Positions 10,044 to 49,839 of a DNA stretch of 64,000 bases are shown in pieces. The notes beneath the pieces were generated by a model. That model did not search any database. It worked only from the letters and a program-made list of their open reading frames with translations, and was not told the DNA's origin. Origin of the DNA: an uncultured Gammaproteobacteria bacterium (GTDB taxonomy: Bacteria > Patescibacteriota > Patescibacteriia > Magasanikbacterales > GWA2-37-8); the NCBI GenBank assembly GCA_964482695.1, contig CAYZYP010000001.1, positions 68,143 to 132,142 on the forward strand, read 5' to 3'. Position numbers and translations under genes: made by a program. How positions within the stretch are numbered: position 1 is the stretch's first letter; every line of letters begins with the position of its first letter.

Positions 10044-10049
10044 AATTAT

Positions 10050-10218
10050 ACTAATTACCTTGAATTGCAAAACTCGTCTTGTCATCCTGAGTGTAGCGGA
10101 GCGAAACGAAGGATCTTTCTGTTAGAGCGCTTCTTAGCACGGAAAGATTCTTCCCCTTCGCTTCGCTCAGGGTCAGAATGACAGTAAAAATGATAGTTTC
10201 GTAATTCAAGGTAATTAT
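10050..10218. repeat. Intergenic nested palindrome. Outer arms are taattaccttgaattgcaaaac / gtttcgtaattcaaggtaatta. They enclose copy D (10079-10184) of the tgtcatcc...ggatgaca element family.
   Basis: Seen directly. The internal sequence gtcatcctgag..gcgaaacgaaggatctttctg...cagaatgacag is homologous to the in-frame copies. Confidence 0.75.
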
Positions 10219-10325
10219 TGATATTTTAGATCAATCCCGAAGTGATCCTCTAGGGATTAAAATAATTTTTAATTAATTAGAACAAACTTGCTAATTTACG
10301 CAAATTGTTCTTTAAGGGAGGTTTT

Positions 10326-11189
10326 ATGCCTTTAGCAAAAAATAACAATGGCAAATCAGTGTCTTTGCCAAAAGTTAGCGCAATAGATACAAAGTCGTGT
10401 TGCCAAAAAAATAATGATTGCTGTAAAAATAATTGTTGTGGTGATTTTGGTAAAAAAATAATAAAAACTTTGGCTGGAATTTTGTTGGTATATGTAATAT
10501 TTTATGTCGGCACTCTGGTTCATAATAATTTAAAAAAATATGAATATATAGGTAAAGCAGAAAAGGCCGAAAGAACAATGACCATTACCGGTTATGGCAA
10601 GGTAAATGGAACCAATGATATAGCAGTAACCACTATTGGCTATACTAATACCGATCAGGATGTTTCCAAGGCGCAGGTAGCTAACAAAAAAGTAATGGAT
10701 GCGGTAATTCAAGATTTAAAGGCAATGAGTATCGTTGATAAAGACATGCAAAGTGATTATTCTATTTATCCGGAATATACTTATACCTCGGCTAGCGGTA
10801 GCGTATTTAAAGGTTATAAAGTTACCAATCAGGTAACAATTAAAATAAGAGATCTTTCAAAAATTCAGAATGTGTTGTCTTTATCCAGTAAATATGGCGC
10901 TAACCAAATTAGCGGTTTAAGTTTTACTATTGACGATCCAGAAAATTTAAAAGAACAAGCCAGAACAAAAGCGCTAGCCGACGCTCAAAAGAAAGCCAAA
11001 ATAATAGCCCAATCTATGGGGACGCGTTTGGGTGGTGTAATTTCTTATAGTGAATATGAAACAAGCGCCGGTAATGTCTACCCGGTTAATTACGCCCGTG
11101 GTGGCTCATTGGGCGCGGAAACGAGCGCTATTGTAAGTGGTAGCAAGGACGTAGAAATGAGTGTTAGTATTACTTACGAACTTAAGTAG
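10326..11189 (+). CDS. SIMPL/DUF541-family (BP26/OMP28-like) protein with a Cys-rich N-terminal segment and one TM helix.
   Basis: 'ITGYGKV..TNDIAVTTIGY....QVTIKIRDLSKIQNVL......GANQISGLSFTIDDPE.L..QAR..A...A..KAK.IA' matches the SIMPL fold pattern. The start is chosen at 10326 because GGGAGG lies 5 nt upstream. Confidence 0.65.
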   Translation: MPLAKNNNGKSVSLPKVSAIDTKSCCQKNNDCCKNNCCGDFGKKIIKTLAGILLVYVIFYVGTLVHNNLKKYEYIGKAEKAERTMTITGYGKVNGTNDIAVTTIGYTNTDQDVSKAQVANKKVMDAVIQDLKAMSIVDKDMQSDYSIYPEYTYTSASGSVFKGYKVTNQVTIKIRDLSKIQNVLSLSSKYGANQISGLSFTIDDPENLKEQARTKALADAQKKAKIIAQSMGTRLGGVISYSEYETSAGNVYPVNYARGGSLGAETSAIVSGSKDVEMSVSITYELK

Positions 11190-12469: not shown

Positions 12470-14017
12470 ATGCAAAGAAATAAAACCACACTTTTAATAA
12501 TCATGGACGGTTGGGGTTTAACAAAACCAAATAAAGGCAATCCAATTACCCCGAAAACCGCGCCAAATTATTTTAATTGGTTAAAAAAATATCCAAATAC
12601 GAAATTAAAAGCCAGTGGCAAAGACGTTGGTTTGTTTACGGGTGAAGACGGAAACAGTGAAGCTGGTCATTTAAATTTAGGTGGAGGGAGAATCGTAAAA
12701 CAAGACGCGTTGTATATTTCTGATGCCATAAAAGACGGCACATTTTTTAAAAATAACGCTTTTAGCCAAGCTATTCATCATGTAAAAAAATATAATACCG
12801 CCGTTCATTTAATGGGGTTGTTATCAAATCATAACAGCGCGCATTCTTGTCCAGAGCACCTGTATGCTTTGTTGGATTTATTTCATAAAAATAATATAGT
12901 TCAGGTTTATTTACATCTTTTTACCGATGGCCGTGATTCTGGCCAGCATGACGCTACCAATCATTTAAAAAAATTAGAAAAACATTTGCGCGCTAATCAA
13001 GAGATCGCTACTGTCATGGGGCGGTTTTACGCCATGGACAGAAACAAACAATGGCGCAGAACTCAACAAGCGTACGAGGCCATGGTTAAAGGCTTAGGTT
13101 GTACTGCTACTAGCGCCGAAGAAGCTTTGGCGCAATCATACAATAGGAATACCACCGACGAATTTATCTGCCCAACCGTAATTATCAAAGACAACAAGCC
13201 GGTCGCGAAAATTAAAGATAATGACGCTATTTTCTTTTTTAACTTGCGCAGCGACAGGGCGCGGCAGTTAACCAAAGTATTTGTTCAGCCGAATTTTAAA
13301 AAAATGAATCAAGGCGCGTTTAACAGAATTCATTTACCAAAGAATACACGTTTTGTGGCCATGACTGATTTTGGCCCTGATTTGCCTGGTGTTTTAGCCG
13401 CTTTTCCTAGCCGTGATGTGGAAAATAGCTTAACACAGATATTATGTCCACGCCGTCAACTATATATTGCTGAATCCGAAAAATACGCTCATGTTACCTA
13501 CTTTTTTAATGGTGGTTATGCTCAGCATTTTTGTGATGAATCTTGGGTAAAAATTGAATCGCCAAACGTGGAAAGTTATGATCAGAAACCAGAAATGAGC
13601 GCTAAAAAAGTGGCTGATTATTTAATTGGCGCTATTGAATCACAAACTTATGATTTTATTTTAGCCAATTTCGCCAATCCGGATATGGTAGGGCACACAG
13701 GAAATTTTTCTGCCGGCGAAATAGCGGTAAATACGGTAGATAAAGAAATAGAAAGGGTAATCAAAAGCTTAGTTAATTGTAATGGTCAAGGTATAATAAC
13801 CGCGGATCATGGCAATATAGAAGAAATGATAAATCCTAGGACAGGAGAAATAGACACTGAACATTCGGCTAATCCAGTACCTTTTATTTTAATAAATTCA
13901 TCAGTTAAAACAAACAAGCATTTACCAACAGGTAAACTAGGAGATGTAGCCCCAACGATTTTGAAATTAATGGCGATAGAAAAGCCAAGAGAAATGAATG
14001 GGAGAGCGTTGGTGTAA
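12470..14017 (+). CDS. gpmI: 2,3-bisphosphoglycerate-independent phosphoglycerate mutase, paralog 1.
   Basis: 'LLIIMDGWG' and the catalytic Ser in 'GNSEAGHLNLG', plus 'ADHGN'. The length is 515 aa. Confidence 0.85.
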   Translation: MQRNKTTLLIIMDGWGLTKPNKGNPITPKTAPNYFNWLKKYPNTKLKASGKDVGLFTGEDGNSEAGHLNLGGGRIVKQDALYISDAIKDGTFFKNNAFSQAIHHVKKYNTAVHLMGLLSNHNSAHSCPEHLYALLDLFHKNNIVQVYLHLFTDGRDSGQHDATNHLKKLEKHLRANQEIATVMGRFYAMDRNKQWRRTQQAYEAMVKGLGCTATSAEEALAQSYNRNTTDEFICPTVIIKDNKPVAKIKDNDAIFFFNLRSDRARQLTKVFVQPNFKKMNQGAFNRIHLPKNTRFVAMTDFGPDLPGVLAAFPSRDVENSLTQILCPRRQLYIAESEKYAHVTYFFNGGYAQHFCDESWVKIESPNVESYDQKPEMSAKKVADYLIGAIESQTYDFILANFANPDMVGHTGNFSAGEIAVNTVDKEIERVIKSLVNCNGQGIITADHGNIEEMINPRTGEIDTEHSANPVPFILINSSVKTNKHLPTGKLGDVAPTILKLMAIEKPREMNGRALV

Positions 14018-14034
14018 AATTATAATTTTCAAAT

Positions 14035-15612
14035 ATGTCTTATCGCCCTGTAGTATTAATAATTTTAGATGGTTGGGGAATAGCGCCAGCTAGCGAAGGT
14101 AACGCCATAACCGAAGCAAGAACACCAAATTTTCTCAAGTATTTGCGCGATTATCCAACCATGACAATACACGCCTCTGGGAATGAGGTTGGTTTATTAT
14201 TCGGGGAAATGGGAAATTCAGAGGTAGGCCATTTAAATATTGGCGCCGGGCGTGTTTATTACCAAACTTGCCCGCGCATTAATAAAGAAATTAGTGATGG
14301 TACATTTTTCAAAAATGAAGCTCTGCTTAAGGCAGTTAATAAAGCAAAAGAAAACAAATCGCAATTACATTTAATTGGTTTATTAAGCTCTGGCAATGTT
14401 CATTCTAGCAATGATCATCTTTATGCTTTGCTAGAGTTGTGCAAACAACACAAATTAACTGATAATGTATTTATTCATGCTATTTTAGATGGCCGTGATT
14501 GTGTTTATAATTCTGGCAAGGAATTTATTAAAGATTTACAGGAAAAAATAAAGCAATTACGTATTGGCAAAATAGCCACCTTGTCTGGTCGCTATTATGC
14601 CATGGACAGAGATAATCGTTGGGAACGAACAGAAAAAGCTTATCAAGCGATTGCCGAGGGTAAGGCCGAAAGAACTGGTGAAAATCCGCTTAAAATTATA
14701 GAAGAATCATACAATAAAAAGAACTATGATGAAGAATTTATCCCTACGGTTATCACCAAAGATGGTGCTCCAATAACTACTATTAAAAATGGCGACGCGG
14801 CGATTTTTTTTAATTTTCGTCCCGATCGAGCGCGGCAATTAACAAAAGCTTTTGTTGTTCCTAGTTTTGAAAAATTTAATAAAAATTTCTTATCAGATTT
14901 AACCTTTGTTACTCTAAGTGAATATGAAAAACAATTACCCGCCACAGTCGCTTTCGCGCCAATGGTGGTGCATAATTGTTTGGCCGAAGTAATTAGTAAA
15001 GCCGGTAAGTGGCAATTACACATCGCAGAAACAGAAAAATACGCTCATGTCACTTTTTTCTTGAATGGCACTGTAGAGGAGCCATTTCGGGGCGAGGAAC
15101 GTTTACTGGTGCCATCACCAAGAGTTTCTAGCTATGATCAAAAGCCAGAGATGTCAGCATCGGAAGTAACTAAATTAGTTAATAAAGCTATTGACGATGG
15201 CAAATACGATTTTATAGTTGTAAATTTTGCTAATCCAGATATGGTTGGCCATACCGGGGTTTTGGAAGCTGGTATAAAGTCGTGCGAAGTAACAGATAAA
15301 TGTTTGGGAAATGTGGTAGAAAATGTCTTAGCTCACGGCGGTGTGGCTTTGGTAACAGCCGACCATGGCAACGCAGAAGAAATGGTTAATTTACAGACAG
15401 GCGAGATAGACAAAGAACATTCTACCAACCCAGTGCCATTTTTAGTAATAAGCAAAGATTATATGGGGCAGGCAGGGTCAGGTGGCGATGCTCCAGAAGG
15501 GGATTTAAGTCTATTGCAACCAGTAGGTATGTTAGCCGATGTGGCGCCGACTGTTTTAAAATTAATGGGTATTGATAAACCAGAAGAAATGACCGGGCAG
15601 GCGTTGATATAA
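14035..15612 (+). CDS. gpmI: 2,3-bisphosphoglycerate-independent phosphoglycerate mutase, paralog 2.
   Basis: 'VLIILDGWG', 'GNSEVGHLNIG' and 'ADHGN'. The length is 525 aa. Confidence 0.85.
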   Translation: MSYRPVVLIILDGWGIAPASEGNAITEARTPNFLKYLRDYPTMTIHASGNEVGLLFGEMGNSEVGHLNIGAGRVYYQTCPRINKEISDGTFFKNEALLKAVNKAKENKSQLHLIGLLSSGNVHSSNDHLYALLELCKQHKLTDNVFIHAILDGRDCVYNSGKEFIKDLQEKIKQLRIGKIATLSGRYYAMDRDNRWERTEKAYQAIAEGKAERTGENPLKIIEESYNKKNYDEEFIPTVITKDGAPITTIKNGDAAIFFNFRPDRARQLTKAFVVPSFEKFNKNFLSDLTFVTLSEYEKQLPATVAFAPMVVHNCLAEVISKAGKWQLHIAETEKYAHVTFFLNGTVEEPFRGEERLLVPSPRVSSYDQKPEMSASEVTKLVNKAIDDGKYDFIVVNFANPDMVGHTGVLEAGIKSCEVTDKCLGNVVENVLAHGGVALVTADHGNAEEMVNLQTGEIDKEHSTNPVPFLVISKDYMGQAGSGGDAPEGDLSLLQPVGMLADVAPTVLKLMGIDKPEEMTGQALI

Positions 15613-23654: not shown

Positions 23655-24956
23655 ATGGACACCAACCATGGAAACCCCACCCGCCCGGGGAAATGGGCGA
23701 AAATTCCGCGTGTGGCCTTTGTGGCTCACGCGTTATTGCCCGGCTATAGCTCCACGGCGCTGATTGAACAGCGCTTGCATGAGCTTGGCCGGGACTGCTG
23801 GCCTGGATCTGGCGAGGATCCGGGTTGGATAAAATGGTTTAGTTTTCCTGTCTGCCCCCCGTCGCAGTCTAGCGGCCAGCCGATCTGGGTTGACTTTTAC
23901 GTCATCCCAGTGTTGGCGCCACGGTTTCTTAAAGCCGTGGTGGCTGGGCAGGCATACAATTGGGCCGAGGAAGTGGCACTCGCCGCCATTTCCGAAGCCC
24001 AAGCCGATGGAGTTGAACTGACCCTGGGTTGGGGTGCTCTGACCAAGTTGGCCACTAATCACGGCCAGCTGTTTCTGGAAAAGCACCCCGAACTTAGTGG
24101 GCAGTTTAATTCTACACACGGTGATGCCGGCACCGCCCTGTTGGTAACAGAGGGTTTGATGCGGGCGGGCGTGGAGCCCGGTTGTCGTGTTGCCGTGATG
24201 GGCGCCAATGGCGCCATCGGCGACGCGGTGAGCCGGGTAATCACCACAGTAATTCAGCCGGAGAGTATTCTCTTGGTCGGCAAGGCGGACCGACCGGGAG
24301 AGACAAAAAATCTCTCCAGGCTGGAGGAACTCAAGTCGCGGGTGCGAGGTCATGTCCGCGGTGGAGCCACTGAGGTGGCCATTCACCAGGATAAGACACG
24401 CGCTTGCCGCGATCATCGCAGCGATGTGGTGGTCGTGGCGACCACCGGCATGGATCTCTCTCCGAGAGAAGTGCCGGTGGGGGCGCTGGTTATGGATATG
24501 ACCACGCCCGCTGCTTGCCAGCTTGACCCGAGCTGGGGCGGTCATCTAGTTTTGACCGCCGGATGCGGGGAATTCTCTCCCGAGGTTCTGCCCTCGGGGT
24601 TTGGAAATATAGGCGGCCGCCGACTGATTGATGCCGGCGCCGGTGGTCCTCGAATCATCTGGGGCTGTACGGGCGAAACCATCGCCCGGGCGGTCTTCGG
24701 ATGGCGAGGCCATTTGGCCGGGACGGCGATTCCCATGGACGCTCTGGAGTGGTGTTCTGACCACTTCGAGCGTCTGGGATTAGTCTCCCAGCCGCCTCTG
24801 AGTTTTAACAACCCAATCAGTTGGTCGCGCGTGCGAGAATTTGTCCAATTCTCGCGGTCGGCGCGGCCGCTGAAGGGGTTGATGAGGCGTTCTCCTCCCG
24901 CCAAGGAGGCGCCTATGGATTTGGGCGGCGTTCGCGCCGTCCTGTATCCAAAATAA
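23655..24956 (+). CDS. GC-rich foreign gene encoding an acyl-ACP reductase-like / COG5322-family NAD(P)-binding oxidoreductase. The conserved core begins near the GTG at 23712.
   Basis: 'VAFVAHALLPGYSS..IEQ', 'TLGWGALTKL' and the Rossmann motif 'VAVMGANGAIGDAVSRVI' parallel the cyanobacterial acyl-ACP reductase architecture. GC is ~60% against ~33% background. GGAAGGAG lies 8 nt upstream of the ATG. Confidence 0.5.
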   Translation: MDTNHGNPTRPGKWAKIPRVAFVAHALLPGYSSTALIEQRLHELGRDCWPGSGEDPGWIKWFSFPVCPPSQSSGQPIWVDFYVIPVLAPRFLKAVVAGQAYNWAEEVALAAISEAQADGVELTLGWGALTKLATNHGQLFLEKHPELSGQFNSTHGDAGTALLVTEGLMRAGVEPGCRVAVMGANGAIGDAVSRVITTVIQPESILLVGKADRPGETKNLSRLEELKSRVRGHVRGGATEVAIHQDKTRACRDHRSDVVVVATTGMDLSPREVPVGALVMDMTTPAACQLDPSWGGHLVLTAGCGEFSPEVLPSGFGNIGGRRLIDAGAGGPRIIWGCTGETIARAVFGWRGHLAGTAIPMDALEWCSDHFERLGLVSQPPLSFNNPISWSRVREFVQFSRSARPLKGLMRRSPPAKEAPMDLGGVRAVLYPK

Positions 24957-39371: not shown

Positions 39372-41453
39372 ATGAAAAAACATATTGAACTAGTTGTTAA
39401 GATTTTAATTTACGCCACTTTTCTTGTCCCTTTAATAGTTATACCCAGTTCTTTTATATTTCCCTTTATCGTGCCGAAAATATTAATTTTCCGTTCTTTG
39501 GTAACAGCCATGCTTGCTGGCTATATATTGCTTTTGATAATTAATTGGCAGGAATACAAGCCAAAACTAACAATTTTAAATATAGTTTTAGCCGCTTTTT
39601 TACTTAGTTTTGCTATTTCTACTTTTGTTGGCACAGACGCATACCACAGCTTTTGGGATAATCACGAACGCATGTTGGGTTTGTTTACTATTTTTCATTA
39701 TGTTGCCTATTATTTTGTCTGTACCGCGGTTTTTAAAAACTGGAAAGATTGGCAAATGGCTTTGCGCATTTTTTTAATTGCCGGCACTTTGGTAGCAATA
39801 ATTGGCTTGCTGCAAGTAGGTAATCCGTATTTATTGCTCAATCAGGGAGGCACTCGTGTTGCCAGCACATTAGGCAATTCTATTTATTTAGGCGGTTATG
39901 GATTATTTTTATCTTTTGTCGCTTTTTTATTAATTATCAGAGAAAAATACACTATTTGGCGTTTAGCAGAGGGATTTTTGGGATTATTAGCGGTTTTAGC
40001 CATGTTTTATAGTGGCACGCGCGGTTCTATGCTTGGCTTGGTAGCTGGTGTCGGCGTTTTGTTGGTTGGTTATGTCATTGTTTTAAGAGAACATCCCAAA
40101 ACACGTTTAATTATAGGCGGAATTATTTTGGCAGGAATAGTTTTATTGGGGATTCTTTATACTTATCGACAAACTAATTTTGTTAGCAGTATCCCAGCAG
40201 TTGGTCGTTCGCTTAACACCAGTTTGACCTCGTTAAAAAACAGCCCTCGTTGGATAGCTTGGGAAATAGCCATAGACAGCTTTAAGCAACGGCCAATATT
40301 TGGCTGGGGGCCAAATAACTTTTTTTACGCTTTTAACGATAATTACAATCCACGTTCTTTGGAATTTGGTTATGGTGAAACGTGGTTTGACAACGCACAC
40401 AATATTATTGTCAATACTTTGGCTGTACAAGGGATATTTGGTTTGGTTGTTTATTTATCTATTTTTGTCTTATCAATTTTAGTTTTGTGGAAAACCTTTT
40501 ATCATCAAGGAATTAATAAACATTTAGTTGTTGCTGGCGCTGCTTTTTTAGTGGCTCATTTAGTACAGAATGTTACAGTGTTTGAAAATCCAACTTCATA
40601 TCTTTATTTTATGTTTTGGTTGGCAATGATTAATCAATTAACAATTGCCAGTCCTAAATTTTTAGAAAAAAATAGTGGAGTAGACGAATACAAAACGGCC
40701 AACAGGGCAGATAATAAAAACGGCAGAAAAGACCAAGAGATTGGATATTGGGCGTTTTCTACAGTTAGCGCTTTAACTTTGCTCTTAATTTTTATTTTTA
40801 ATATCCAGCCAGCCAGAGCTAACATGAAAACCCTAGAGGCTTTAAGAATGATTTCTTCGGAATACCCATCTTTGGGTGTAGAGCCAATGAAAGAGGCTTT
40901 GGCTTTTAGCTCTCCGCATATAGATGATATTCGCGCTGATATAGGTCGTACAGTTGGGCAAATAATCAACAGTTCTTATCAAAAGTTAGGATTAGACAAG
41001 AGCAAAGAAATTTTAGATATTGCTTATAATGCTTTGTCGGAAAATTTAACTTTGCATCCTTTGGATATTCGTAATCAATTAACTATTGCTCAATTAGCAC
41101 AGACAAAAGCAATTTTAGAAAATAATGCCAACTATTTGTTAGAAGCGGAAAAATTTTTAGAAGACGCGTTAAAAAAATCTCCTAAACGCCAGCAGATTAT
41201 TTATAATTTATCAAGTATTAAACTACAAGTTAATAAACAAACAGAAGCGGTTCAATTGATGGAGCAGACTATTAAAGACAATTATAAAATAGCCGAAAGT
41301 TATTGGCGTTTGGCTTATACTTATAAAGCTATTGGCCAATCGCAAAAAGCCAAAGAAACTATAGATCTGGCTTATAAAAATAATATTCAATTTAGTGACA
41401 ATGAAAAAGAAATTATCAAACAAATTTTAACAACAGCGACAACAACAAAATAG
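39372..41453 (+). CDS. O-antigen ligase/polymerase-like (Wzy_C family) membrane protein with a C-terminal TPR-repeat domain.
   Basis: ~10 TM helices with 'YSGTRGSMLGLVAGVGV' typical of Wzy_C. The C-terminal 250 aa contain TPR-like helices ('AESYWRLAYTYKAIGQSQKAKE'). Confidence 0.6.
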   Translation: MKKHIELVVKILIYATFLVPLIVIPSSFIFPFIVPKILIFRSLVTAMLAGYILLLIINWQEYKPKLTILNIVLAAFLLSFAISTFVGTDAYHSFWDNHERMLGLFTIFHYVAYYFVCTAVFKNWKDWQMALRIFLIAGTLVAIIGLLQVGNPYLLLNQGGTRVASTLGNSIYLGGYGLFLSFVAFLLIIREKYTIWRLAEGFLGLLAVLAMFYSGTRGSMLGLVAGVGVLLVGYVIVLREHPKTRLIIGGIILAGIVLLGILYTYRQTNFVSSIPAVGRSLNTSLTSLKNSPRWIAWEIAIDSFKQRPIFGWGPNNFFYAFNDNYNPRSLEFGYGETWFDNAHNIIVNTLAVQGIFGLVVYLSIFVLSILVLWKTFYHQGINKHLVVAGAAFLVAHLVQNVTVFENPTSYLYFMFWLAMINQLTIASPKFLEKNSGVDEYKTANRADNKNGRKDQEIGYWAFSTVSALTLLLIFIFNIQPARANMKTLEALRMISSEYPSLGVEPMKEALAFSSPHIDDIRADIGRTVGQIINSSYQKLGLDKSKEILDIAYNALSENLTLHPLDIRNQLTIAQLAQTKAILENNANYLLEAEKFLEDALKKSPKRQQIIYNLSSIKLQVNKQTEAVQLMEQTIKDNYKIAESYWRLAYTYKAIGQSQKAKETIDLAYKNNIQFSDNEKEIIKQILTTATTTK

Positions 41454-41471
41454 AATATAACGTAATTTTTT

Positions 41472-42791
41472 ATGCCGCAGGATGATAAAATTATTCAGAA
41501 AATAAAAGAATTTCCTCGACAAAAAGTTCTGGTAGTTGGTGATATGATGTTGGATAAATTTACTTATGGTGATATTTCTCGTATTTCTCCAGAAGCGCCA
41601 GTACCAGTTTTAAAGAAAATAGCTGATAAATATATTTTGGGAGGAGCTGGAAATGTTGCCAGTAATATTAAAGCATTGGGCGCGCAGGTTTTTTTAGTTA
41701 GCATGGTAGGAGCGGATGAAGCAAAAATACGAGTTTTTTCTTTATTGAAAAAAGCAAAGTTATCTTCGCGTTCTGTTCTTGTTAGTAAAGATGGATCAAC
41801 AACCATAAAACAGAGATTTGTTGTTGGCTCAACACAACAGTTGTTGCGGTTAGACGAAGAAAGCACAGAAGAAATGAATTTAAAAGAAGAAACAGCATTT
41901 TTAAAACAGTTAAAAAAGGTAATACCAGAATGCGATATAATAATTGTGTCCGATTATTGCAAAGGTTGTATAACTTTTAATATAGCCAGAGAGTTGATAA
42001 AATTAGCGAAAAAACATAAAAAAAGGGTGATAGTAGACACCAAGCCAATGCACAGAGATTTTTTCTTAGGAGCGGACATATTTACACCTAATATTAAAGA
42101 AGCGCAAGAAATGTCTGGCGAAGAAAATGTAGAAGAAGCCGGTAAAAAATTAGCTAAATTATTAAAAGCGACGATTTTGTTAACCAGATCGTCGGAAGGC
42201 ATGACGATTTTTAATAAAGATAATTTGGTTCAACACGTGCCGGCAAAATCAGCGCACAGAGTATTTGACGTAACCGGGGCAGGTGATACGGTAGTAGCCA
42301 TTTTAGCTTTATCTTTGGCTAGTGGCCTTAATTTAAAGGAGTCAGCAGAATTGGCCAATAATGCCGGTAGCATAGTAGTACAAAAGCCCGGGACATCAGT
42401 GTTGTCGGCGGCAGAACTGATTTCTAGTTTGGCGGAAATTGATAATGTAGCCACTACGAAAATAGTGCCAAAAGTTTGGGGTTATGAAAAATGGTTGGAA
42501 AATAATGAAAAATATTGTTGTAAGATTTTAGTGATTAAAAAAGATTTCCAATGCAGTTTGCATTTTCATAAAATTAAAGACGAAACTTTTTTATTGGTTA
42601 AGGGTTATTTACAAATGGAAGTGAATAAAAAAACAATTTATTTAAAACCAGGAGATTATATACGCATAAAACCCGGCGACAAACATCGTTTTACTGGGCT
42701 AGAAGAATCAGAAATTTTAGAAATTAGCACTCATCACGAAGAAAAAGATTCTTATCGTTTAATAAAGAGCAGAAGAGTGTTAGTAAAATAA
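41472..42791 (+). CDS. D-glycero-beta-D-manno-heptose-7-phosphate kinase (HldE/RfaE domain I, PfkB family) fused to a C-terminal cupin domain.
   Basis: 'VLVVGDMMLDKFTYGD' and 'DVTGAGDTVVA' are the PfkB anion hole motif. The C-terminal ~115 aa 'KVWGYEKWL...HFHKIKDETFLLVKGYL.....PGDYIRIKPGDKHRF' is a cupin. Confidence 0.65.
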   Translation: MPQDDKIIQKIKEFPRQKVLVVGDMMLDKFTYGDISRISPEAPVPVLKKIADKYILGGAGNVASNIKALGAQVFLVSMVGADEAKIRVFSLLKKAKLSSRSVLVSKDGSTTIKQRFVVGSTQQLLRLDEESTEEMNLKEETAFLKQLKKVIPECDIIIVSDYCKGCITFNIARELIKLAKKHKKRVIVDTKPMHRDFFLGADIFTPNIKEAQEMSGEENVEEAGKKLAKLLKATILLTRSSEGMTIFNKDNLVQHVPAKSAHRVFDVTGAGDTVVAILALSLASGLNLKESAELANNAGSIVVQKPGTSVLSAAELISSLAEIDNVATTKIVPKVWGYEKWLENNEKYCCKILVIKKDFQCSLHFHKIKDETFLLVKGYLQMEVNKKTIYLKPGDYIRIKPGDKHRFTGLEESEILEISTHHEEKDSYRLIKSRRVLVK

Positions 42792-42807
42792 GAATTTACA
42801 AAAGTTT

Positions 42808-43389
42808 ATGAAAAGAGCTATCTTTTTGGACCGGGATGGCGTAATAAATAAAGATCGCGGTTATACTTTTAAAATATTTGATTACGAATTATTGCCCGGT
42901 GTTAAACAAGGATTACAAAAATTACAAAAAGCGGGCTTTGGCTTATATGTTTTAACTAATCAATCGGGGATAGGCCGCGGTTTTTACACAGAAAATGATT
43001 ATTATAAATTTACTAACTATCTATTATCCGATTTAAATTCAGCCGGCATAAAAATAGCAGGCTGTTATTTTTGTCCGCACCATCCAACAAATGGGCAAGG
43101 GGAGTATAAAAAAGATTGTCATTGCCGTAAGCCAAAATCAGGTTTGTTGTTGCAGGCAGAAAAAAAAGATGGGCCGTTTGATTATAGAAAAAGCTGGGTT
43201 ATAGGAGACAGTATCAGGGATATTGAAACAGTAAAAAATATCCATCCCGAAGCAAGAGGTATTCTGTTGCCTAAAAATTACGATACCAATGATGAACTGT
43301 CTATTGAAGCAAAAGAAAAAAATAATAAATCAGTTAATTATTTTGTTGAAAATTTTTTACAGGCTGTTGATTTTATTTTATCTGAATAG
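42808..43389 (+). CDS. gmhB: D,D-heptose 1,7-bisphosphate phosphatase (HAD-IIIA).
   Basis: 'AIFLDRDGVIN', the Zn-binding 'CYFCPHHP....C.CRKP' and 'GDS..D'. Confidence 0.7.
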   Translation: MKRAIFLDRDGVINKDRGYTFKIFDYELLPGVKQGLQKLQKAGFGLYVLTNQSGIGRGFYTENDYYKFTNYLLSDLNSAGIKIAGCYFCPHHPTNGQGEYKKDCHCRKPKSGLLLQAEKKDGPFDYRKSWVIGDSIRDIETVKNIHPEARGILLPKNYDTNDELSIEAKEKNNKSVNYFVENFLQAVDFILSE

Positions 43390-43453
43390 TCATACAACGA
43401 GTAAATATTCCTTGATGTTGACGCTTCGAAGACTATTATTTAATAATTTAGAT

Positions 43454-43936
43454 ATGACAAAGAACAAAATAAAAAAAATAAATGAATTAGTTAAAATCAG
43501 ACAGCAGTTAAGAAAGCAGGGGAAGAAAGTAGTTACCACCAATGGTTCTTATGACATTTTTCATGTTGGCCATGTTCGTAGTTTAGAAGAATCCAAAGCC
43601 CAAGGAGATATTTTAATAGTAGGGGTAAATAGCGATAGTTCGGTAAAAAAATACAAATCAAAAGAAAGGCCTATTGTGCCAGAAAAATTGCGAGCAGAAT
43701 TAGTGGCATCGCTCGCCTGCGTTGATTATGTTTTTATTTTTTCCGAAATTAACCCAATTAAATTTATTAAAAAGTTAAAGCCAGATGTCCATACCAATAG
43801 CGTTGATTATGGTGAAAATTGCGTTGAAAAAGAAACAGTGGAAAAAAATGGCGGTAAAATTTATCTTTTAAAAAAATACAGTGATATATCTAGTTCAGTA
43901 ATTATCAAAAAAATTTTAGCGATGAATCGTAAATAG
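43454..43936 (+). CDS. D-beta-D-heptose 1-phosphate adenylyltransferase (HldE/RfaE domain II, cytidylyltransferase-like), encoded separately.
   Basis: 'VVTTNGSYDIFHVGHVRSL' is the (H/T)xGH nucleotidyltransferase motif. 'ILIVGVNSDSSVKKYK' is present. Confidence 0.7.
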   Translation: MTKNKIKKINELVKIRQQLRKQGKKVVTTNGSYDIFHVGHVRSLEESKAQGDILIVGVNSDSSVKKYKSKERPIVPEKLRAELVASLACVDYVFIFSEINPIKFIKKLKPDVHTNSVDYGENCVEKETVEKNGGKIYLLKKYSDISSSVIIKKILAMNRK

Positions 43937-43957
43937 CAGAGTGTAAATTATATGCAT

Positions 43958-44030
43958 TGCGCCAGCGGAAAACACTTTTTAGAGCACTTGACGTAAGTCA
44001 AGTGGAGCTAAAAAGTGTTTTCCGCTGGCG
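43958..44030. repeat. Nested palindrome F. Outer arms are gcgccagcggaaaacactttttag. An inner hairpin is cacttgacgtaagtcaagtg.
   Basis: Seen directly. It shares termini with E (23343-23452) and G (30395-30480). Confidence 0.75.
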
Positions 44031-44058
44031 TGACGCGTGAAGTTAGACCTAAGAATTT

Positions 44059-45174
44059 ATGTTTTTTGTGAAATTGATATTGAAGAAGATAGTAATGAAT
44101 TTGAGTTATAGTTTTTTAGAATTGTGGGGGAAATTAAAGCAAAATCAGCTTAAAGATATAGAAAAAATTGGCATTTTATTTTTACCGCCATTAGGCATAG
44201 GCGATTTAGTAATGTTATCGCCAGCTACCCAAGAAATAAAAAATATTTTTCCTAAAGCAAAAATAAGTTTGATAACTTGGATACCAACTATTATCAATTT
44301 CAATGGAATAGAATTTGTACCTTATCAAAAAGAAAAAATTAAGCAGGAAAAATTTGATTTATTAATTTCGCCCACTTTGAATTTGCATCATTTACCTTTT
44401 ATTTTTTCTGCTAAATATTGGGTTGGTTACTTTGCCAAAGAAAGATTACAGGCGAATTTTAAAATTGAAAAATGCGATTATGATCCGCAAAATGAACATT
44501 ATTTTTGGCGATCCGTTTGTTTAATAAAATCTCTTAATAAAGAAAGCGGACAAAAGCTGCAAGAGCTAGCTCAAAAAAAGCGTCTGTCGTACCCAGAAAT
44601 AAAAGTTGGAGAACTAAAAGATTATCAAGAAAACGAATTGTTAAAAAGTCGCTATTTAGCAGTGGCTGTATTTTCTAAAATACCGGATAGATTGTGGCCA
44701 ATAGAAAAATACGCGCAAGTAATAGAGCAGGTTTATAATAATAAATATGTTGAAAAAATAGTTTTGCTTGGCGATGATAGTAAAAATAACGCCGCGACAG
44801 CGCGAAAATTAATTGATAATTTAACTTTGCCCAAAACAGCTATCTTAAATTTAACCGGTCAATGTAGTTTGTCCCAAGCAGCCTATATTATTAAAAATAG
44901 TTATTTATTTTTAGGTGCTGATTCCGGGCCGGCTCATTTGGCTTATTTTTTGGCTAAAAAGCCGGTAGCTATTTTTATCACTGTTGAACCCAATTTACGT
45001 TTGCCGTTGTTTATTGGTTTAGATAAAATTAAAACTGTTTATCCTTTTCCATCGCCACCATGTTCTTTGTATAATGGTTTAATGCCAGTGCCGGAAAAGG
45101 TGGTTAAGCAGTACAAAGAGAGGATTACAGTAGACGATGTTTTAAAAAAATTTGCTGAACTTGTAAAATTTTAA
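44059..45174 (+). CDS. Glycosyltransferase family 9 (ADP-heptose-dependent heptosyltransferase-like).
   Basis: 'GILFLPPLGIGDLVMLSPA' and 'FLGADSGPAHLA' are hallmark GT9 motifs. Confidence 0.65.
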   Translation: MFFVKLILKKIVMNLSYSFLELWGKLKQNQLKDIEKIGILFLPPLGIGDLVMLSPATQEIKNIFPKAKISLITWIPTIINFNGIEFVPYQKEKIKQEKFDLLISPTLNLHHLPFIFSAKYWVGYFAKERLQANFKIEKCDYDPQNEHYFWRSVCLIKSLNKESGQKLQELAQKKRLSYPEIKVGELKDYQENELLKSRYLAVAVFSKIPDRLWPIEKYAQVIEQVYNNKYVEKIVLLGDDSKNNAATARKLIDNLTLPKTAILNLTGQCSLSQAAYIIKNSYLFLGADSGPAHLAYFLAKKPVAIFITVEPNLRLPLFIGLDKIKTVYPFPSPPCSLYNGLMPVPEKVVKQYKERITVDDVLKKFAELVKF

Positions 45175-45176
45175 TT

Positions 45177-45767
45177 TTGATTATGAAATATTTACGTTAT
45201 TTATTTAATTATTTATTATCATTACTGTACGATGTTTATTATTTTTTCTTTGGCGATATTCGTTCGCGTGTACAAAACATAAAATATTATCAGACAAGCA
45301 AAGCTTATCCCGGTTATTTAAAAAAAGGAAACATGGCCGAAGCGGTTAAATCTTTGGCTTTGTTTTATTGCCAAGGCAAAGGCTTGGATATTGGCGCTGG
45401 TAAGTGGGCTTTGACAGGATCTAGACCAATAGAAAATAGCAAAGAAGAAAATGCTTACAAAATATCCGAGCCAGATAATAGTTGTAATTTTGTTTTTTCT
45501 TCTCATAGTTTAGAACATTTGTCAGATTGGGAAAACGCTCTGCAAGAATGGTTTAGAGTATTGAAAACAGACGGTGTTATCTTTTTATATCTACCGCATC
45601 CGGTTTGCGAAATGTGGCACGTTGGCGTAAATAAACAACATTTGTGGGCGCCAGACAGCGAATTATGCCAGAAATTTTTGGTTGATAAATTAAAGATGAA
45701 AATTGAATTAGCAACTACGTTACCAGATGGCTATTTAAGTTTTGTAGTAGTAGCTAGAAAGGTTTAA
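45177..45767 (+). CDS. Class I SAM-dependent methyltransferase.
   Basis: 'GKGLDIGAG' motif I and a downstream 'VIFLYLPHP' motif. Confidence 0.5.
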   Translation: MIMKYLRYLFNYLLSLLYDVYYFFFGDIRSRVQNIKYYQTSKAYPGYLKKGNMAEAVKSLALFYCQGKGLDIGAGKWALTGSRPIENSKEENAYKISEPDNSCNFVFSSHSLEHLSDWENALQEWFRVLKTDGVIFLYLPHPVCEMWHVGVNKQHLWAPDSELCQKFLVDKLKMKIELATTLPDGYLSFVVVARKV

Positions 45768-45769
45768 CT

Positions 45770-47047
45770 ATGTCGGAATTATTCTTTCACCAGTTAGATA
45801 TTACAAAATTAAATAATTATTTAATCCTGCTTGATATTGACGGCACAATTGTTTGTGATGGCAGTGAAAAAATAGAAGAGGACGCAGTTTTGAAGATAAA
45901 AGAATTAGCCAAAAATAACAAATTATATTTTTGTTCTAACAAAGGTGCTTGTAAACAAAGAGAAAATATTTTGAATTTAACAGGCGTGTCTTGTTTGGAC
46001 GCGCCACATCGCAAGCCAAGTAAAAAAATTTTACGATATATTGAAAACAAAGAATCACTGCCTTTGCTAATAATAGGCGATAAATATTTAACCGATGGCT
46101 TTTTCGCGAAAAATATCGGCGCGGAATTTATTAAAGTAAAAAGGTTAAAGTCTGCCAGTGATAGCTTGTTCGTTAAATTAACTTACTTGATAGATAATTT
46201 TGTCTATTTTGTGAAAGATTATTTTATATTATTGCGTCCTTGGCAATGGATAAAGAATTTTTTTGTTTTTGTACCGATATTTTTTGCCAAGGAAATTTTT
46301 TTGCCAACTAAATTATCAACGGCTTTTCTGGCGTTTATTGTTTTTTGTCTAACAGCCAGCGCCATGTATGTGATTAATGATATTTTTGATAAAAAAGCAG
46401 ATCAGGCTCATACCAAAAAGAACAAAAGGCCGATAGCGACAGGCAGGCTAAAGATTTGGCAGGCGATTATTATACTATTTTTGTTATTATTGTCGGCCGT
46501 GGCGATTATTTTTTATAAATTGCCGACTATTTGGCCGGTGATGGCTATTTATGTTATTTTAAATTTATTGTATTCTTCTTATTTTAAAAAGGTGGTTATT
46601 TTGGATCTTTTATTTATTTCCGTGTTTTATTTATTACGTGTTTTGGCCGGTGGCATCGCTACCAATACCTATATTTCACACTGGTTAATATTATGCGTAT
46701 TGTTCGTTACCTTGCTTATCATCATTGGTAAAAGAATAGCGGAATTTAAACAGCCTAACAAAAGGGAAGTCTTAAAATCATACAGTTTGAATTTTCTAGA
46801 ACATTTGCTTTCTGTTAGCGCTGGATTAACTCTGGTTTCTTATGGCCTGTATAGTTTTTTGGGCGTTAGTTCCCCCTGGATGGTTTATTCAACTTTGTTT
46901 ATAGTTTTAGGCGTTTTTCGTTTTCTTTTTTTAGTATATACTACCGACAAAACAGAATTTCCAGAAAAATTAATTTTGACTGACAGAGTATTATTGAGCT
47001 CTATTGTTTGTTGGCTATTGTATATGTATATAATTTTTTATCATTAA
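45770..47047 (+). CDS. Fusion protein with an N-terminal HAD-IIIA-like phosphatase domain and a C-terminal UbiA-family prenyltransferase (decaprenyl-phosphate phosphoribosyltransferase-like) domain.
   Basis: HAD motifs 'LLDIDGTIV', 'KPSKK' and 'IGDKYLTDG'. Then ~8 TM helices with the UbiA Asp-rich motif 'NDIFDKKADQAHTKKNKRPIATGRL'. Confidence 0.6.
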   Translation: MSELFFHQLDITKLNNYLILLDIDGTIVCDGSEKIEEDAVLKIKELAKNNKLYFCSNKGACKQRENILNLTGVSCLDAPHRKPSKKILRYIENKESLPLLIIGDKYLTDGFFAKNIGAEFIKVKRLKSASDSLFVKLTYLIDNFVYFVKDYFILLRPWQWIKNFFVFVPIFFAKEIFLPTKLSTAFLAFIVFCLTASAMYVINDIFDKKADQAHTKKNKRPIATGRLKIWQAIIILFLLLLSAVAIIFYKLPTIWPVMAIYVILNLLYSSYFKKVVILDLLFISVFYLLRVLAGGIATNTYISHWLILCVLFVTLLIIIGKRIAEFKQPNKREVLKSYSLNFLEHLLSVSAGLTLVSYGLYSFLGVSSPWMVYSTLFIVLGVFRFLFLVYTTDKTEFPEKLILTDRVLLSSIVCWLLYMYIIFYH

Positions 47048-47091
47048 CTTAAATTAAGCCAGAATAATATTGTTTTTAAAGTAAAAATTTT

Positions 47092-48129
47092 ATGTCACAT
47101 TTTTTAGTCACAGGAGGATCAGGTTTTTTGGGAATTAATTTAATCCGCCATTTGTTATCTCGCGGCCACAAAGTCCGTTCATTAGACATTGTGCCGTTTG
47201 ATTATCCGGAAAAAGATAAAGTAGAAACAATCTTGGGAGATATTAGAAATAAAGAAACAGTAGAAAGAAGTCTGGAAGGCATAGATATTGTGATACATTG
47301 TGCCGCCGCTTTGCCATTGTACAAAAAAGAAGATATTTTTTCTACTGATATAGAAGGCGCTAGAAACATGTTGCAAGCCGCGTATAAAAATAAAATTGAT
47401 CGCTTTATTCATATTTCTTCTACCGCTGTTTATGGCATTCCTGACCACCACCCATTGTGCGAAGAAGATAAGCTAGAAGGCGTTGGCCCTTATGGCCAAT
47501 CCAAAATAATGGCCGAATATCTTTGCCTAGAATACGCCCGCCGCGGCATGTGTGTGTCAATAATTCGCCCTAAATCATTCATTGGTCCAGAAAGATTAGG
47601 AGTATTTGCTTTATTGTATGATTGGGCTAAAGATGGTAAAAATTTCCCAATGATTGGCAGTGGCAACAATAGGTATCAGTTATTAGATGTAGAAGATTTG
47701 TGCGATGCGGTTTATTTGTGCGCCACCAAAGAAAAAAATATTGTTAATGATACTTTTAACATAGGCGCTAAAGAATTTACCACCATGAAAGAAGATTATC
47801 AAGCTGTTTTGGATAAGGCTGGCAAACACAAGAAAATAATTGGTTTCCCAGCCGGTCCGGCAATTTGGTTTTTGCGAGTTTTAGAAAAATTACATCTGTC
47901 ACCACTATATAAATGGGTATATGAAACAGCCAGCCACGACAGTTTTGTTTCTATAGAAAAAGCAGAAAAAAAATTAGGCTATTCGCCAAAATTTTCTAAT
48001 AAGCAAGCGCTTGTTAGAAATTATGATTGGTATTTGGCTAATTTAGAAAAATTTAAAGGTCAAAAAGGGGTATCTCATCGCGTGCCTTGGGGGCAGGGGG
48101 TATTGAAAATTGTTAAATTGTTTTTTTAA
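47092..48129 (+). CDS. NAD-dependent epimerase/dehydratase (extended SDR).
   Basis: 'LVTGGSGFLGINLIRHLL' is the Rossmann motif. The catalytic 'YGQSK' is present. Confidence 0.7.
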   Translation: MSHFLVTGGSGFLGINLIRHLLSRGHKVRSLDIVPFDYPEKDKVETILGDIRNKETVERSLEGIDIVIHCAAALPLYKKEDIFSTDIEGARNMLQAAYKNKIDRFIHISSTAVYGIPDHHPLCEEDKLEGVGPYGQSKIMAEYLCLEYARRGMCVSIIRPKSFIGPERLGVFALLYDWAKDGKNFPMIGSGNNRYQLLDVEDLCDAVYLCATKEKNIVNDTFNIGAKEFTTMKEDYQAVLDKAGKHKKIIGFPAGPAIWFLRVLEKLHLSPLYKWVYETASHDSFVSIEKAEKKLGYSPKFSNKQALVRNYDWYLANLEKFKGQKGVSHRVPWGQGVLKIVKLFF

Positions 48130-48135
48130 TGGCTT

Positions 48136-49839
48136 ATGAAATGGTTGAAAATAGACAATTTTATCTTTAATCGTTGGCAAGGCACGGTAATGGTGATATT
48201 AGTTTTTGTTATTGCTTCGGTATTTGGCGTTAATCAATATAGATATGGTTGGAGCGACCAAACGATAACTATCCCTTTTATCAAATTTTTTCTAAATCCA
48301 GAATTATTTTCTGGTGATTATTTATTAACGCAAATCCCGTATTATTATACTTTTTTGTGGTTTGGCTTGGCTGTTATAATCAAATATCTGCATCTTAGTA
48401 CCCCTGTTATTTTTTTTATCACTTATTTTTTATTAGTGGTTGCTTTATATTCAGCTATTTATTTAATTGCTCGGGAAATTTTTAAGAAAAAGGAAGTGGC
48501 TTTTTTATCGTTATTTTTTCTTTTGTTTGCCAATACTACTTTAGCTGGAGCAAATATTTTGGATGACATGTTGGTTACTAGAACAGCTGTTTTGCCATTT
48601 TTACTTTTTGCCCTTTATTTTTTTCTTAAAGAAAAGTATTTTATTACCTATTTACTTTTGGGTATTGGCTTTTTGATTCATCCTTTAACTGCTTTATACG
48701 TTTTTGCAATGATTTTTGTAGCTTCAATAGTAAATATTAAAAAAATAGGAGCTAAAAAATTATTTTCTGCCGGTGGATTTTTTTTAATTACAATACTGCC
48801 ATTAATAGTTTGGAAAACAGTATATTCACCGCAGTCATTTGGTTTGCTTCATGTAGATGCCAGTTGGTTGGAACTATTACGTTTACGTTCTAGTCATCAT
48901 ATTTTTCCATTTTCATGGAATTTAGATATTTTTTTAAAAGCAGTTTTAACAGCTGTATTATTTTTTTTCTCTTTCAGACGTGTGCCCTTTGGTAGCAGGA
49001 AGCGGGCAACCAGTATGTTTGTTGTCGCGATTGCCACTATGATGATAATTGGTATAATTTTTACCGAAATTTGGCCAGCTTCTTTCGCGTTGGAATTACA
49101 GTTTTTGAGGAGTTGGCAATTTTTTGTTTATCTAACAATAATTTATTTTTCTAATTATTTTGTTAATCAGTTAGAAGAAGGGAAAAAGATATTACCATGG
49201 TTATTATTGGTTATTGGCTCAATCGCTTTTTTCTATAATACCTCGGAAAAACGTTTAACTGATTATTCCTTATTTATTTACGCCGGATTTATAGGAGGTT
49301 TTATTTTGTTGTTTTTATTTTTAAAATTCTTAAAAAGAAAAGAATTACTATTAAAAGGTTTTATTTATTTTATTGTTTGTTTTTCTTTGGCGGTTGGTGG
49401 CGTAGCCTATGCTATGCAGAAAAATTTTACTATTTACAACGCTCAAGATAAATTATGGTTAGATGTTCAGTATTGGGCCAACAAAAATACCAGCTCAACC
49501 GCTATGTTTATTGTTCCGCCCAGCATAGAAGGTTTTAGAGTAGAATCAGAAAGAACAATATATGCTGACTGGAAGGATGGCACATTACTTAATTTTAATC
49601 CTCAGTTTGGCACAGAATGGCTTAGAAGGATGAAAAAATTAGGTTATAAAAAAGGGGATAGGGATTCTTTGGAGCGTGGCTACATGAGTTTAGCTGAAAA
49701 GGATTTTATAGGAATAATCAAAGAACAGTCTTTGGACAAAGGGCCTTGGTATGTGGTAATGTATAAGGAACGCGGAGATTTAAACTTGCCTATTGTATAT
49801 CAAAATGGTAAGTTTATTGTTTACAGGACAACTAAATAG
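48136..49839 (+). CDS. Large polytopic membrane protein with a C-terminal soluble domain. Putative GT-C-fold glycosyltransferase using polyprenyl-phospho-sugar.
   Basis: ~12 TM helices over ~430 aa, then a ~140-aa soluble tail. It sits next to the UbiA-fusion and epimerase genes. No family was firmly recognised. Confidence 0.35.
   Translation: MKWLKIDNFIFNRWQGTVMVILVFVIASVFGVNQYRYGWSDQTITIPFIKFFLNPELFSGDYLLTQIPYYYTFLWFGLAVIIKYLHLSTPVIFFITYFLLVVALYSAIYLIAREIFKKKEVAFLSLFFLLFANTTLAGANILDDMLVTRTAVLPFLLFALYFFLKEKYFITYLLLGIGFLIHPLTALYVFAMIFVASIVNIKKIGAKKLFSAGGFFLITILPLIVWKTVYSPQSFGLLHVDASWLELLRLRSSHHIFPFSWNLDIFLKAVLTAVLFFFSFRRVPFGSRKRATSMFVVAIATMMIIGIIFTEIWPASFALELQFLRSWQFFVYLTIIYFSNYFVNQLEEGKKILPWLLLVIGSIAFFYNTSEKRLTDYSLFIYAGFIGGFILLFLFLKFLKRKELLLKGFIYFIVCFSLAVGGVAYAMQKNFTIYNAQDKLWLDVQYWANKNTSSTAMFIVPPSIEGFRVESERTIYADWKDGTLLNFNPQFGTEWLRRMKKLGYKKGDRDSLERGYMSLAEKDFIGIIKEQSLDKGPWYVVMYKERGDLNLPIVYQNGKFIVYRTTK

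Follow-up and report, generated by a model that had tools for sequence, protein, structure and literature searches.

A group of three consecutive genes, located within a surface-glycan locus of a 64-kb stretch of DNA (contig CAYZYP010000001.1, positions 68,143 to 132,142; hereinafter "the window", meaning all 64,000 nucleotides analysed), is likely to encode a Patescibacteria version of the "three-component" pathway of extracytoplasmic pentofuranose glycosylation. The products are a fusion of a HAD phosphatase with a UbiA-type enzyme, a short-chain dehydrogenase/reductase (SDR) and a polytopic membrane protein with a predicted GT-C glycosyltransferase fold. A preliminary description of this DNA had placed three open reading frames (ORFs) here, and all of them are present on the + strand exactly as described. 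They are not chance features, because they are long, give strong profile matches and possess dozens of homologues. The 425-aa and 345-aa (amino acid) ORFs are separated by 44 nt, and the 345-aa and 567-aa ORFs by 6 nt. The features of the trio, where PRPP is phosphoribosyl pyrophosphate and PPPRS and DPPRS denote polyprenyl-phosphate and decaprenyl-phosphate phosphoribosyltransferases, are as follows:

45770-47047, + strand, 425-aa ORF, HAD and UbiA fusion
45770..46204, + strand, N-terminal HAD domain of the fusion, probably HAD-IIIA (YqeG/PGP-phosphatase-like, capless), predicted polyprenyl-P-ribose-5-phosphate 5′-phosphatase
46205..47047, + strand, C-terminal UbiA-superfamily domain of the fusion, predicted PRPP-using polyprenyl-phosphate 5-phosphoribosyltransferase (PPPRS/DPPRS-like)
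47092..48129, + strand, 345-aa ORF, cytoplasmic extended SDR, predicted polyprenyl-P-ribofuranose epimerase (PF01370, 145 bits; 3Beta_HSD, 88 bits)
48136..49839, + strand, 567-aa ORF, polytopic membrane protein with a modelled GT-C glycosyltransferase fold, predicted extracytoplasmic pentofuranosyltransferase (DUF6798 at the C-terminus, residues about 430-567)

According to the proposed scheme, the UbiA-type domain would move ribose-5-phosphate from PRPP onto polyprenyl phosphate at the cytoplasmic face of the membrane, and the fused HAD-IIIA domain would strip the 5′-phosphate to give polyprenyl-P-ribofuranose. The cytoplasmic NAD-dependent extended SDR would then convert the ribose on the lipid into a different pentofuranose by epimerisation; if the Citrobacter youngae protein ORF13 is a guide, the product may be the C3 epimer, xylofuranose (Xylf). 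A transporter encoded outside the window would flip the donor to the other side of the membrane, and the 567-aa DUF6798 protein would transfer the pentofuranose onto a surface glycan, probably the heptose-containing, methylated polymer of the flanking genes.

Every proposed step has a biochemical precedent in the side-chain glycosylation system of C. youngae O1/O2 (Kelly et al., PNAS 2024, PMC11127046). ORF15 of this bacterium combines an N-terminal HAD "phosphoribose phosphatase" with a DPPRS-like UbiA domain, and its synthesis of polyprenyl-P-ribofuranose from PRPP has been shown biochemically; ORF13, a cytoplasmic SDR, changes the side-chain sugar from ribofuranose (Ribf) to Xylf (O2); ORF14 is a small predicted flippase; and ORF12, a GT-C enzyme and the founder of family GT136, carries out periplasmic pentofuranose transfer, so that the system places Ribf or Xylf on the O-antigen (PMC11127046).

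The UbiA domain of the 425-aa protein is predicted from its sequence to be a phosphoribosyltransferase of the DPPR-synthase type. The preliminary description had reported a HAD-UbiA fusion with an NDxxDxxxD motif and a "KRPIATG" segment, and both domains and both motifs were located: PF01040 matches residues 150-423 with 81 bits, the first motif corresponds to N203-D204-x-x-D207-x-x-x-D211 and the second to K219-G225. The NCBIfam models of DPPRS match the protein with 203.7 (NF008977), 193.4 (NF008978) and 143.7 bits (NF008976), and the best of the quinone, heme, chlorophyll or ether-lipid UbiA models reaches 51 bits. DPPRS models rank top in all 21 full-length fusion homologues. The sole PDB sequence match is Mycobacterium tuberculosis Rv3806c (E 1.3e-36, residues 154-417 against 20-293), which shares 30% identity with the UbiA domain. 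A Foldseek comparison of the AlphaFold2 (AF2) model of the 425-aa protein (pLDDT 89) with the Rv3806c structure 8j8j gave a TM-score of 0.83 and a root mean square deviation of 2.9 Å, and the TM-scores with other UbiA structures are about 0.7. Both the family models and the Rv3806c match bear out the earlier suggestion that the domain groups with the sugar-phosphate transferases and not with quinone or heme prenyltransferases.

The substrate contacts of Rv3806c have been described. The 5′-phosphate of PRPP is contacted by K28, Y70 and Y157 and the ribose by N73 and Q135, Mg2+ is bound by D77, the pyrophosphate by R22, K87, R90, K143 and Y138, and the lipid phosphate by K191; the phosphoribose site was reported to be non-conserved in ordinary UbiA enzymes (PMC10994848). 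In the 425-aa protein these positions map to R156 (R22), K162 (K28), Y200 (Y70), N203 (N73), D207 (D77), K217 (K87), R220 (R90), Y268 (Y138), K273 (K143), Y287 (Y157) and K321 (K191), the one substitution being Q135 to N265. Identity with Rv3806c is found at 12 of 13 substrate-binding positions mapped in all. The mapped substrate-binding residues are invariant across the fusion family, N265 excepted.

The HAD domain occupies the N-terminal 130-145 residues of the fusion, with profile matches at residues about 19-131. The score with PF09419 is above the cutoff (24.6 against 20.4 bits), and the scores with TIGR01662 (27.4 against 44.6) and TIGR01668 (26.1 against 89.1) are under it. TIGR01668 is nevertheless matched by 21 of the 21 fusion homologues, with a best E-value of 3e-17; these are models of YqeG-type HAD-IIIA and PGP phosphatases. 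The motifs DxDxT (D22, D24, T26), S/T-N (S56, N57), K82 and GDxxxTD (D104, D109) are invariant in the same homologues, and the fold in the AF2 model is a minimal Rossmannoid without a cap. PRPP is a cytoplasmic metabolite, and the first transmembrane helix of Rv3806c bears R22 of the PRPP-binding K/R cluster; the fused HAD would therefore sit on the cytoplasmic side, beside the active site of the synthase. The proposal that synthase and dephosphorylation activities are united in one polypeptide is supported by the invariant motifs and by the precedent of ORF15 (PMC11127046).

The HAD domain of the window differs in type from that of the fusions found in Proteobacteria. The latter belong fully to NCBIfam PRK08238 (P0106 scores 594 bits, the cutoff being 351), and the N-terminal region of this type, about 190 residues long, is HAD-IB/PF12710-type; the stand-alone phosphatase of Lactococcus is also HAD-IB. 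Judging by its length, residue numbering (D18, N247) and taxa overlap (Burkholderia multivorans, Rhizobium), C. youngae ORF15 appears to be PRK08238-type as well. Pairwise comparison of the window HAD with the PPPRS-associated HAD-IB domains found elsewhere revealed no similarity beyond motif I. Because one fusion appears to contain HAD-IIIA and the other HAD-IB, the data suggest an independent fusion of a different HAD onto the same synthase, the synthase-phosphatase fusion having arisen at least twice, and such a twofold origin would underline the tight coupling of both steps.

The same HAD-IIIA domain was also observed in another context. In the comparison locus L113 (loci are designated below by the letter L and a number), the gene at positions 9001-10698 encodes a protein (P0102) that joins this domain (40% identity over 146 aa) to a flippase of the MOP/Wzx type. 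The genes of the L113 operon follow the order PPPRS, SDR, a 547-aa membrane protein, an EamA-like protein of 119 aa and HAD::MOP, and the HAD::MOP fusion provides a Rosetta-stone tie of the phosphatase to lipid-linked sugar export.

Genes of HAD-IIIA, PPPRS and SDR are adjacent in 12 loci, namely the window, L001, L083-L086, L089-L092, L099 and L113. The arrangements include the fused HAD-PPPRS, PPPRS followed by HAD, HAD-SDR-PPPRS and HAD fused to the MOP flippase. The fact that the genes stay adjacent although their order is shuffled strongly indicates joint action of the three activities. In all these loci besides the window, the HAD/PPPRS genes have as an immediate neighbour an orthologue of the window SDR (530-630 bits), and a truncated orthologue is found in L096; the SDR had been proposed earlier as a partner in the pathway, and its tight co-conservation agrees with this role. 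The motifs read from its sequence are TGGSGFLG, which fits TGxxGxxG, and YGQSK, which fits YxxxK. The top NCBIfam match is an HpnA-like model; models of the OleD type and of the sterol demethylase SdmB are found too, mixed with nucleotide-sugar dehydratases, all far below the cutoffs; these profile matches may give a weak hint at a lipid-linked substrate.

The modelled structure of the 567-aa protein supports a GT-C fold. DUF6798 (PF20604) matches with 45.9 bits, and the gathering threshold of PMT_2 (PF13231, GT39/GT83-type) is narrowly missed (25.8 against 26.1 bits). A PDB sequence search found no similarity to any solved structure. The AF2 model, built on 63 homologues, has a pLDDT of 92.4 and a pTM of 0.93, and the top 15 matches in the Foldseek search of the PDB are all GT-C enzymes (PglB, STT3, ArnT, AftA, ALG12, DPY19), with E-values of 8e-6 to 3e-4, including 7.7e-6 for PglB and 8.5e-5 for AftA. 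The highest TM-score was obtained with ArnT (0.52/0.54); that with AftA is 0.34-0.37. The GT-C-like membrane protein of the preliminary description is thus seen in the AF2 and Foldseek results as a GT-C fold and not as a transporter, the MFS/APC matches appearing only at E>0.1 with TM-scores of 0.12 or less. D61, located in the first external loop after the first transmembrane segment, is invariant in the 63 homologues and is a candidate catalytic base; R468, R473, W495 and R498 of the DUF6798 alpha/beta domain are also invariant. The literature search for DUF6798 found no paper mentioning this family. The comparison of the 567-aa protein with a stand-in for GT136, a 614-aa protein encoded next to a PRK08238-type fusion (L081), revealed no similarity.

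The comparison with the Citrobacter system reveals both shared and distinctive features. In both cases, a HAD phosphatase is placed N-terminally to a DPPRS-like UbiA domain with the same Asn/Asp-rich and K-R-x-x-E motifs, a cytoplasmic SDR with TGxxGxxG and YxxxK is encoded beside the fusion gene, and a GT-C-fold enzyme carries an extra C-terminal extracytoplasmic domain, all within a surface-glycan locus. In contrast, the HAD of the window appears to be a capless HAD-IIIA of about 130 aa, instead of the capped HAD-IB of PRK08238-type to which ORF15 probably belongs; the GT-C protein of the window has the DUF6798 alpha/beta domain, whereas ORF12 has an Ig-like carbohydrate-binding module; the small flippase is absent from the window; and the host is a bacterium of the Candidate Phyla Radiation (CPR), not a proteobacterium.

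The mycobacterial decaprenyl-phosphoarabinose pathway comprises the DPPRS Rv3806c, the PAP2 phosphatase Rv3807c, DprE1/DprE2, Rv3789 and the GT-C enzymes Emb/Aft. The window shares with it a homologous first enzyme (Rv3806c), the proposed succession of dephosphorylation and epimerisation on the lipid carrier and a GT-C enzyme as the predicted final user. However, the phosphatase of the window is a fused HAD and not a separate PAP2 protein, and a single extended SDR is found, with neither the FAD oxidase DprE1 nor the classical short SDR DprE2. Unlike in mycobacteria, the lipid carrier is presumably other than decaprenyl-P, and the GT-C protein is nearest to ArnT by TM-score, AftA being matched too.

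In Pseudomonas aeruginosa Pa5196/PA7, pilin is glycosylated with D-arabinofuranose (D-Araf) by a system that includes PsPA7_6245-6249 and TfpW (bioRxiv 10.1101/2020.04.19.049825). This system likewise pairs a non-actinobacterial DPPRS homologue with a GT-C enzyme, and the periplasmic tetratricopeptide repeats (TPRs) of TfpW are reminiscent of those in the Wzy_C protein encoded near the trio. It differs in that it uses DprE1/E2, a phosphatase that is a separate protein and a GtrA-like protein, whereas the window yielded no homologue of DprE1/DprE2 or of the GtrA-type comparator. As in systems of the ArnC/ArnT and GtrA/B/V types, a lipid-P-monosaccharide donor would be made in the cytoplasm and used outside by a GT-C enzyme, but the donor of the window would be derived from PRPP by a UbiA-type enzyme and not from a nucleotide sugar by a glycosyltransferase of family GT2. 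Among the other comparators, cultured bacteria in which these building blocks recur, Chondrinema combines DPPRS, DprE1, DprE2 and GT39s; Lactococcus, a membrane protein, DPPRS, HAD-IB and GtrA; Vibrio alfacsensis, heptose genes, HAD::UbiA and EamA; and Burkholderia stagnalis, HAD::UbiA, DprE1, DprE2, a further SDR and GtrA.

Several observations weigh against the proposed pathway or parts of it. The scores of the 425-aa protein are below the NCBIfam equivalog cutoffs of the three DPPRS models (234, 207 and 474 bits for NF008977, NF008978 and NF008976, respectively), and for this reason the domain is labelled DPPRS-like (PPPRS) and not a decaprenyl-specific orthologue; the unfused PPPRS relative in L113 just clears the cutoff of NF008978 (209.2 against 207). 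The second SDR of the Burkholderia stagnalis system, used as a stand-in for ORF13, scored 18 bits against the window SDR. No small ORF with three or more transmembrane segments that could encode a flippase was found in the 64-kb window, and neither were homologues of the EamA-like comparators of L113/L110 or of the GtrA comparator of L109. A small EamA/SMR-like transporter adjoins the module in six related loci (L084, L086, L089, L099, L101, L113), and the flippase gene may lie elsewhere in the source genome. As for the GT-C partner, PPPRS and SDR orthologues are missing within 10 kb at 72 of the 75 DUF6798 loci sampled, which represent Patescibacteria, Chloroflexota, Bacteroidota, Acidobacteriota, Verrucomicrobiota and Planctomycetota; the PPPRS-less loci include those of the close homologues (48% identity) in L005, L007 and L008. 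This count rules out a general partnership of DUF6798 with PPPRS. In L001, one extra gene sits between the SDR and DUF6798 genes. In the Vicinamibacteria (Acidobacteriota) loci L019-L060, the neighbours of DUF6798 are a GT2 protein of 252 aa and a UXS-like extended SDR, so DUF6798 enzymes use other donors elsewhere; these loci resemble an ArnC/ArnT-like lipid-P-sugar route with a different donor. Two or three more large polytopic proteins without Pfam matches are also encoded in L019-L060.

The membrane partner of the module varies as well. L083, L084 and L096 have a PMT_2-positive protein resembling L080_820, and L113 and L085 have a protein resembling L113_547; a GT-C protein of some family flanks the module in the first three loci and probably in the other two. 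Given this variability and the occurrence of DUF6798 without PPPRS elsewhere, the DUF6798 family is not pentofuranose-specific. The preliminary description had called for the co-occurrence of the gene trio to be checked across genomes: the HAD/PPPRS/SDR part of the trio proved to be a recurrent unit, but the GT-C partner is exchangeable. The tie of the 567-aa protein to the donor module is only moderately strong and is based on adjacency in two or three genomes.

PRK08238-type loci offer a parallel observation. In L080 and L107, the HAD::UbiA genes of this type adjoin a DprE1-like FAD oxidase gene, and L080 also has a DprE2-like short SDR. The neighbours in these two loci are large proteins of 619-922 aa without a Pfam match, to which proteins encoded next to the CPR module in L083, L084 and L096 are distantly homologous; the L084 copy of the L080_820-like protein matches PMT_2. 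The proteins of 619-922 aa probably constitute an unannotated family of GT-C pentofuranosyltransferases.

Alternatively, the HAD-PPPRS and SDR might make a lipid-linked pentofuranose that is not consumed by the adjacent DUF6798 protein. The latter would then depend on some other polyprenyl-P-sugar, and the pentose donor would go to a GT-C enzyme elsewhere or into a pathway involving the Wzy_C-TPR protein. The low frequency of PPPRS near DUF6798, the GT2 and UXS-like neighbours in Acidobacteriota, the change of the module-adjacent GT-C from locus to locus (L083, L084, L096 as against L113, L085) and the recurrence of Wzy_C-TPR homologues near the module in L001, L084, L086, L091 and L113 would all fit this explanation. 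Against it, the SDR and DUF6798 genes of the window are on the same strand with a gap of only 6 nt, and the linkage is seen again in L001/L006, where DUF6798 is linked to a module whose fusion protein is 48% identical to the 425-aa protein, and in L016, where the PPPRS gene lies 4 kb from the DUF6798 gene. Moreover, no match to Glycos_transf_2 (GT2, the family of GtrB/DPM1-type polyprenyl-P-sugar synthases) was obtained among the cluster proteins scanned, and a variable GT-C partner is exactly what is seen in the published systems (PMC11127046, Fig. S12 legend). On balance, a separate consumer of the pentose donor seems unlikely, and transfer by the 567-aa protein is preferred.

A still less probable explanation concerns the sugar: the pathway might yield polyprenyl-P-D-arabinofuranose, the single extended SDR carrying out the C2 epimerisation for which mycobacteria and Pseudomonas employ DprE1 and DprE2. 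The PPPRS is equally similar to Rv3806c, which is an enzyme of the Araf pathway, an NAD-retaining SDR could in principle oxidise and re-reduce C2, and the SDR clade is distinct. However, the candidate Araf systems in a published survey had DprE1/E2 homologues, whereas the Xylf systems had an ORF13-type SDR, and the sole characterised case of a lone SDR yielded Xylf (PMC11127046). No DprE1/DprE2 homologue was found in the window, and the loci bearing DprE1/E2-like genes (L080, L107, L108, L111) have no SDR of the window type. It seems that, of the "arabinan-like" chemistry suggested earlier, the logic of the pathway can be retained, but arabinose itself is disfavoured by the missing DprE1/DprE2 and by the Xylf product of the characterised lone SDR. 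A broader version of this idea, in which the lone SDR gives polyprenyl-P-Araf or a pentofuranose not seen before, such as lyxofuranose, and DUF6798 constitutes a new CAZy family of pentofuranosyltransferases, is similarly improbable; if true, it would mean that Patescibacteria place an arabinan-like or novel furanose on a heptose-containing surface polymer without DprE1/DprE2.

Finally, a conventional prenyltransferase of aromatic or isoprenoid type (quinone, heme O, ether lipid) in a coincidental neighbourhood, which would be consistent with PF01040 membership and with the annotation of homologues as 4-hydroxybenzoate polyprenyltransferase in some sources, has a negligible probability, since the quinone, heme and chlorophyll models score ≤51 bits against 144-204 for the three DPPRS models, the phosphoribose-binding residues specific to Rv3806c are kept, other UbiA structures are unmatched by sequence and the linkage with phosphatase and SDR is conserved; the quinone-prenyltransferase assignment is effectively refuted by the model scores and by the sequence and structure match to Rv3806c.

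The extracytoplasmic pentofuranose pathway favoured here is known in its logic, which was established in 2024 in Citrobacter (PMC11127046), and it involves no new biochemical principle. As this type of pathway is published and widespread, the trio is to be regarded as a lineage-specific variant. The distinguishing elements are the HAD subfamily, the co-conserved SDR clade, the uncharacterised GT-C family DUF6798 and the Magasanikbacteria-like CPR host. The opinion that such genes are unexpected in the lineage was overstated in view of the published distribution, but the literature search for the decaprenylphosphoryl pathway in Patescibacteria found nothing; no follow-up work on GT136 was found in the literature search either. 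Patescibacteria (CPR) live attached to host cells, and to our knowledge there is almost no experimental information on their cell-surface glycans. From the locus, a Magasanikbacteria-like organism is predicted to attach a pentofuranose, taken from a lipid-linked donor, to a surface polymer containing heptose, and a first testable function is suggested for the DUF6798 family.

The window is AT-rich (GC content about 35%), and nearly all genes are located on the + strand. The window enolase shares 75-78% identity with proteins assigned by name to Candidatus Magasanikbacteria, Patescibacteria or Parcubacteria, and the source of the contig is a groundwater metagenome; the host thus belongs to the CPR. 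The surface-glycan locus that encloses the trio starts at about 39 kb and continues up to the window's end, and the region upstream of the trio contains the following features:

39372..41453, + strand, Wzy_C (O-antigen ligase/polymerase-like) membrane protein with C-terminal TPRs (PF04932, 80 bits, and TPR matches)
41472..45767, + strand, heptose-type sugar-nucleotide and transfer genes (Pfam/NCBIfam matches)

The genes of the second region encode a methyltransferase, a PfkB kinase carrying a cupin domain, and proteins resembling a GmhB-type HAD, a cytidylyltransferase and a GT9 heptosyltransferase. Their order is the same in L001, and they probably build the acceptor glycan. The locus also holds several methyltransferases, WbqC, GT4s and an AsnB-like protein, and Pfam matches point to a putative WbpB/WbpE/WbpD-like trio.

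The fusion of the heptose-kinase-like PfkB with a C-terminal cupin/mannose-6-P-isomerase-like domain (41472-42791, + strand) is kept in L001. A GmhA isomerase of the SIS type was not observed in the cluster, so the isomerisation required for heptose synthesis may fall to the cupin domain. Separate overlapping ORFs (42808-43936, + strand) encode the GmhB-like HAD and the cytidylyltransferase-like protein, whereas L001 has one 349-aa fusion.

Three further observations were made outside the surface-glycan locus. A 433-aa ORF (23655-24956, + strand), rich in Ala, Gly, Arg and Pro, has a GC content of about 45% against the background of 35%; it contains a Rossmann-like stretch, VAVMGANGAIGDAV, has no Pfam match and may be a horizontally acquired gene. 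Two copies of cofactor-independent phosphoglycerate mutase (iPGM) are encoded as tandem paralogues at 12470-14017 and 14035-15612 (+ strand). Within an ORF with a peptidoglycan-binding domain (1572-2627), positions 1972-2110 are occupied by about 15 copies of the 9-bp tandem repeat CCACCCCGG, which should encode a short peptide-repeat linker.

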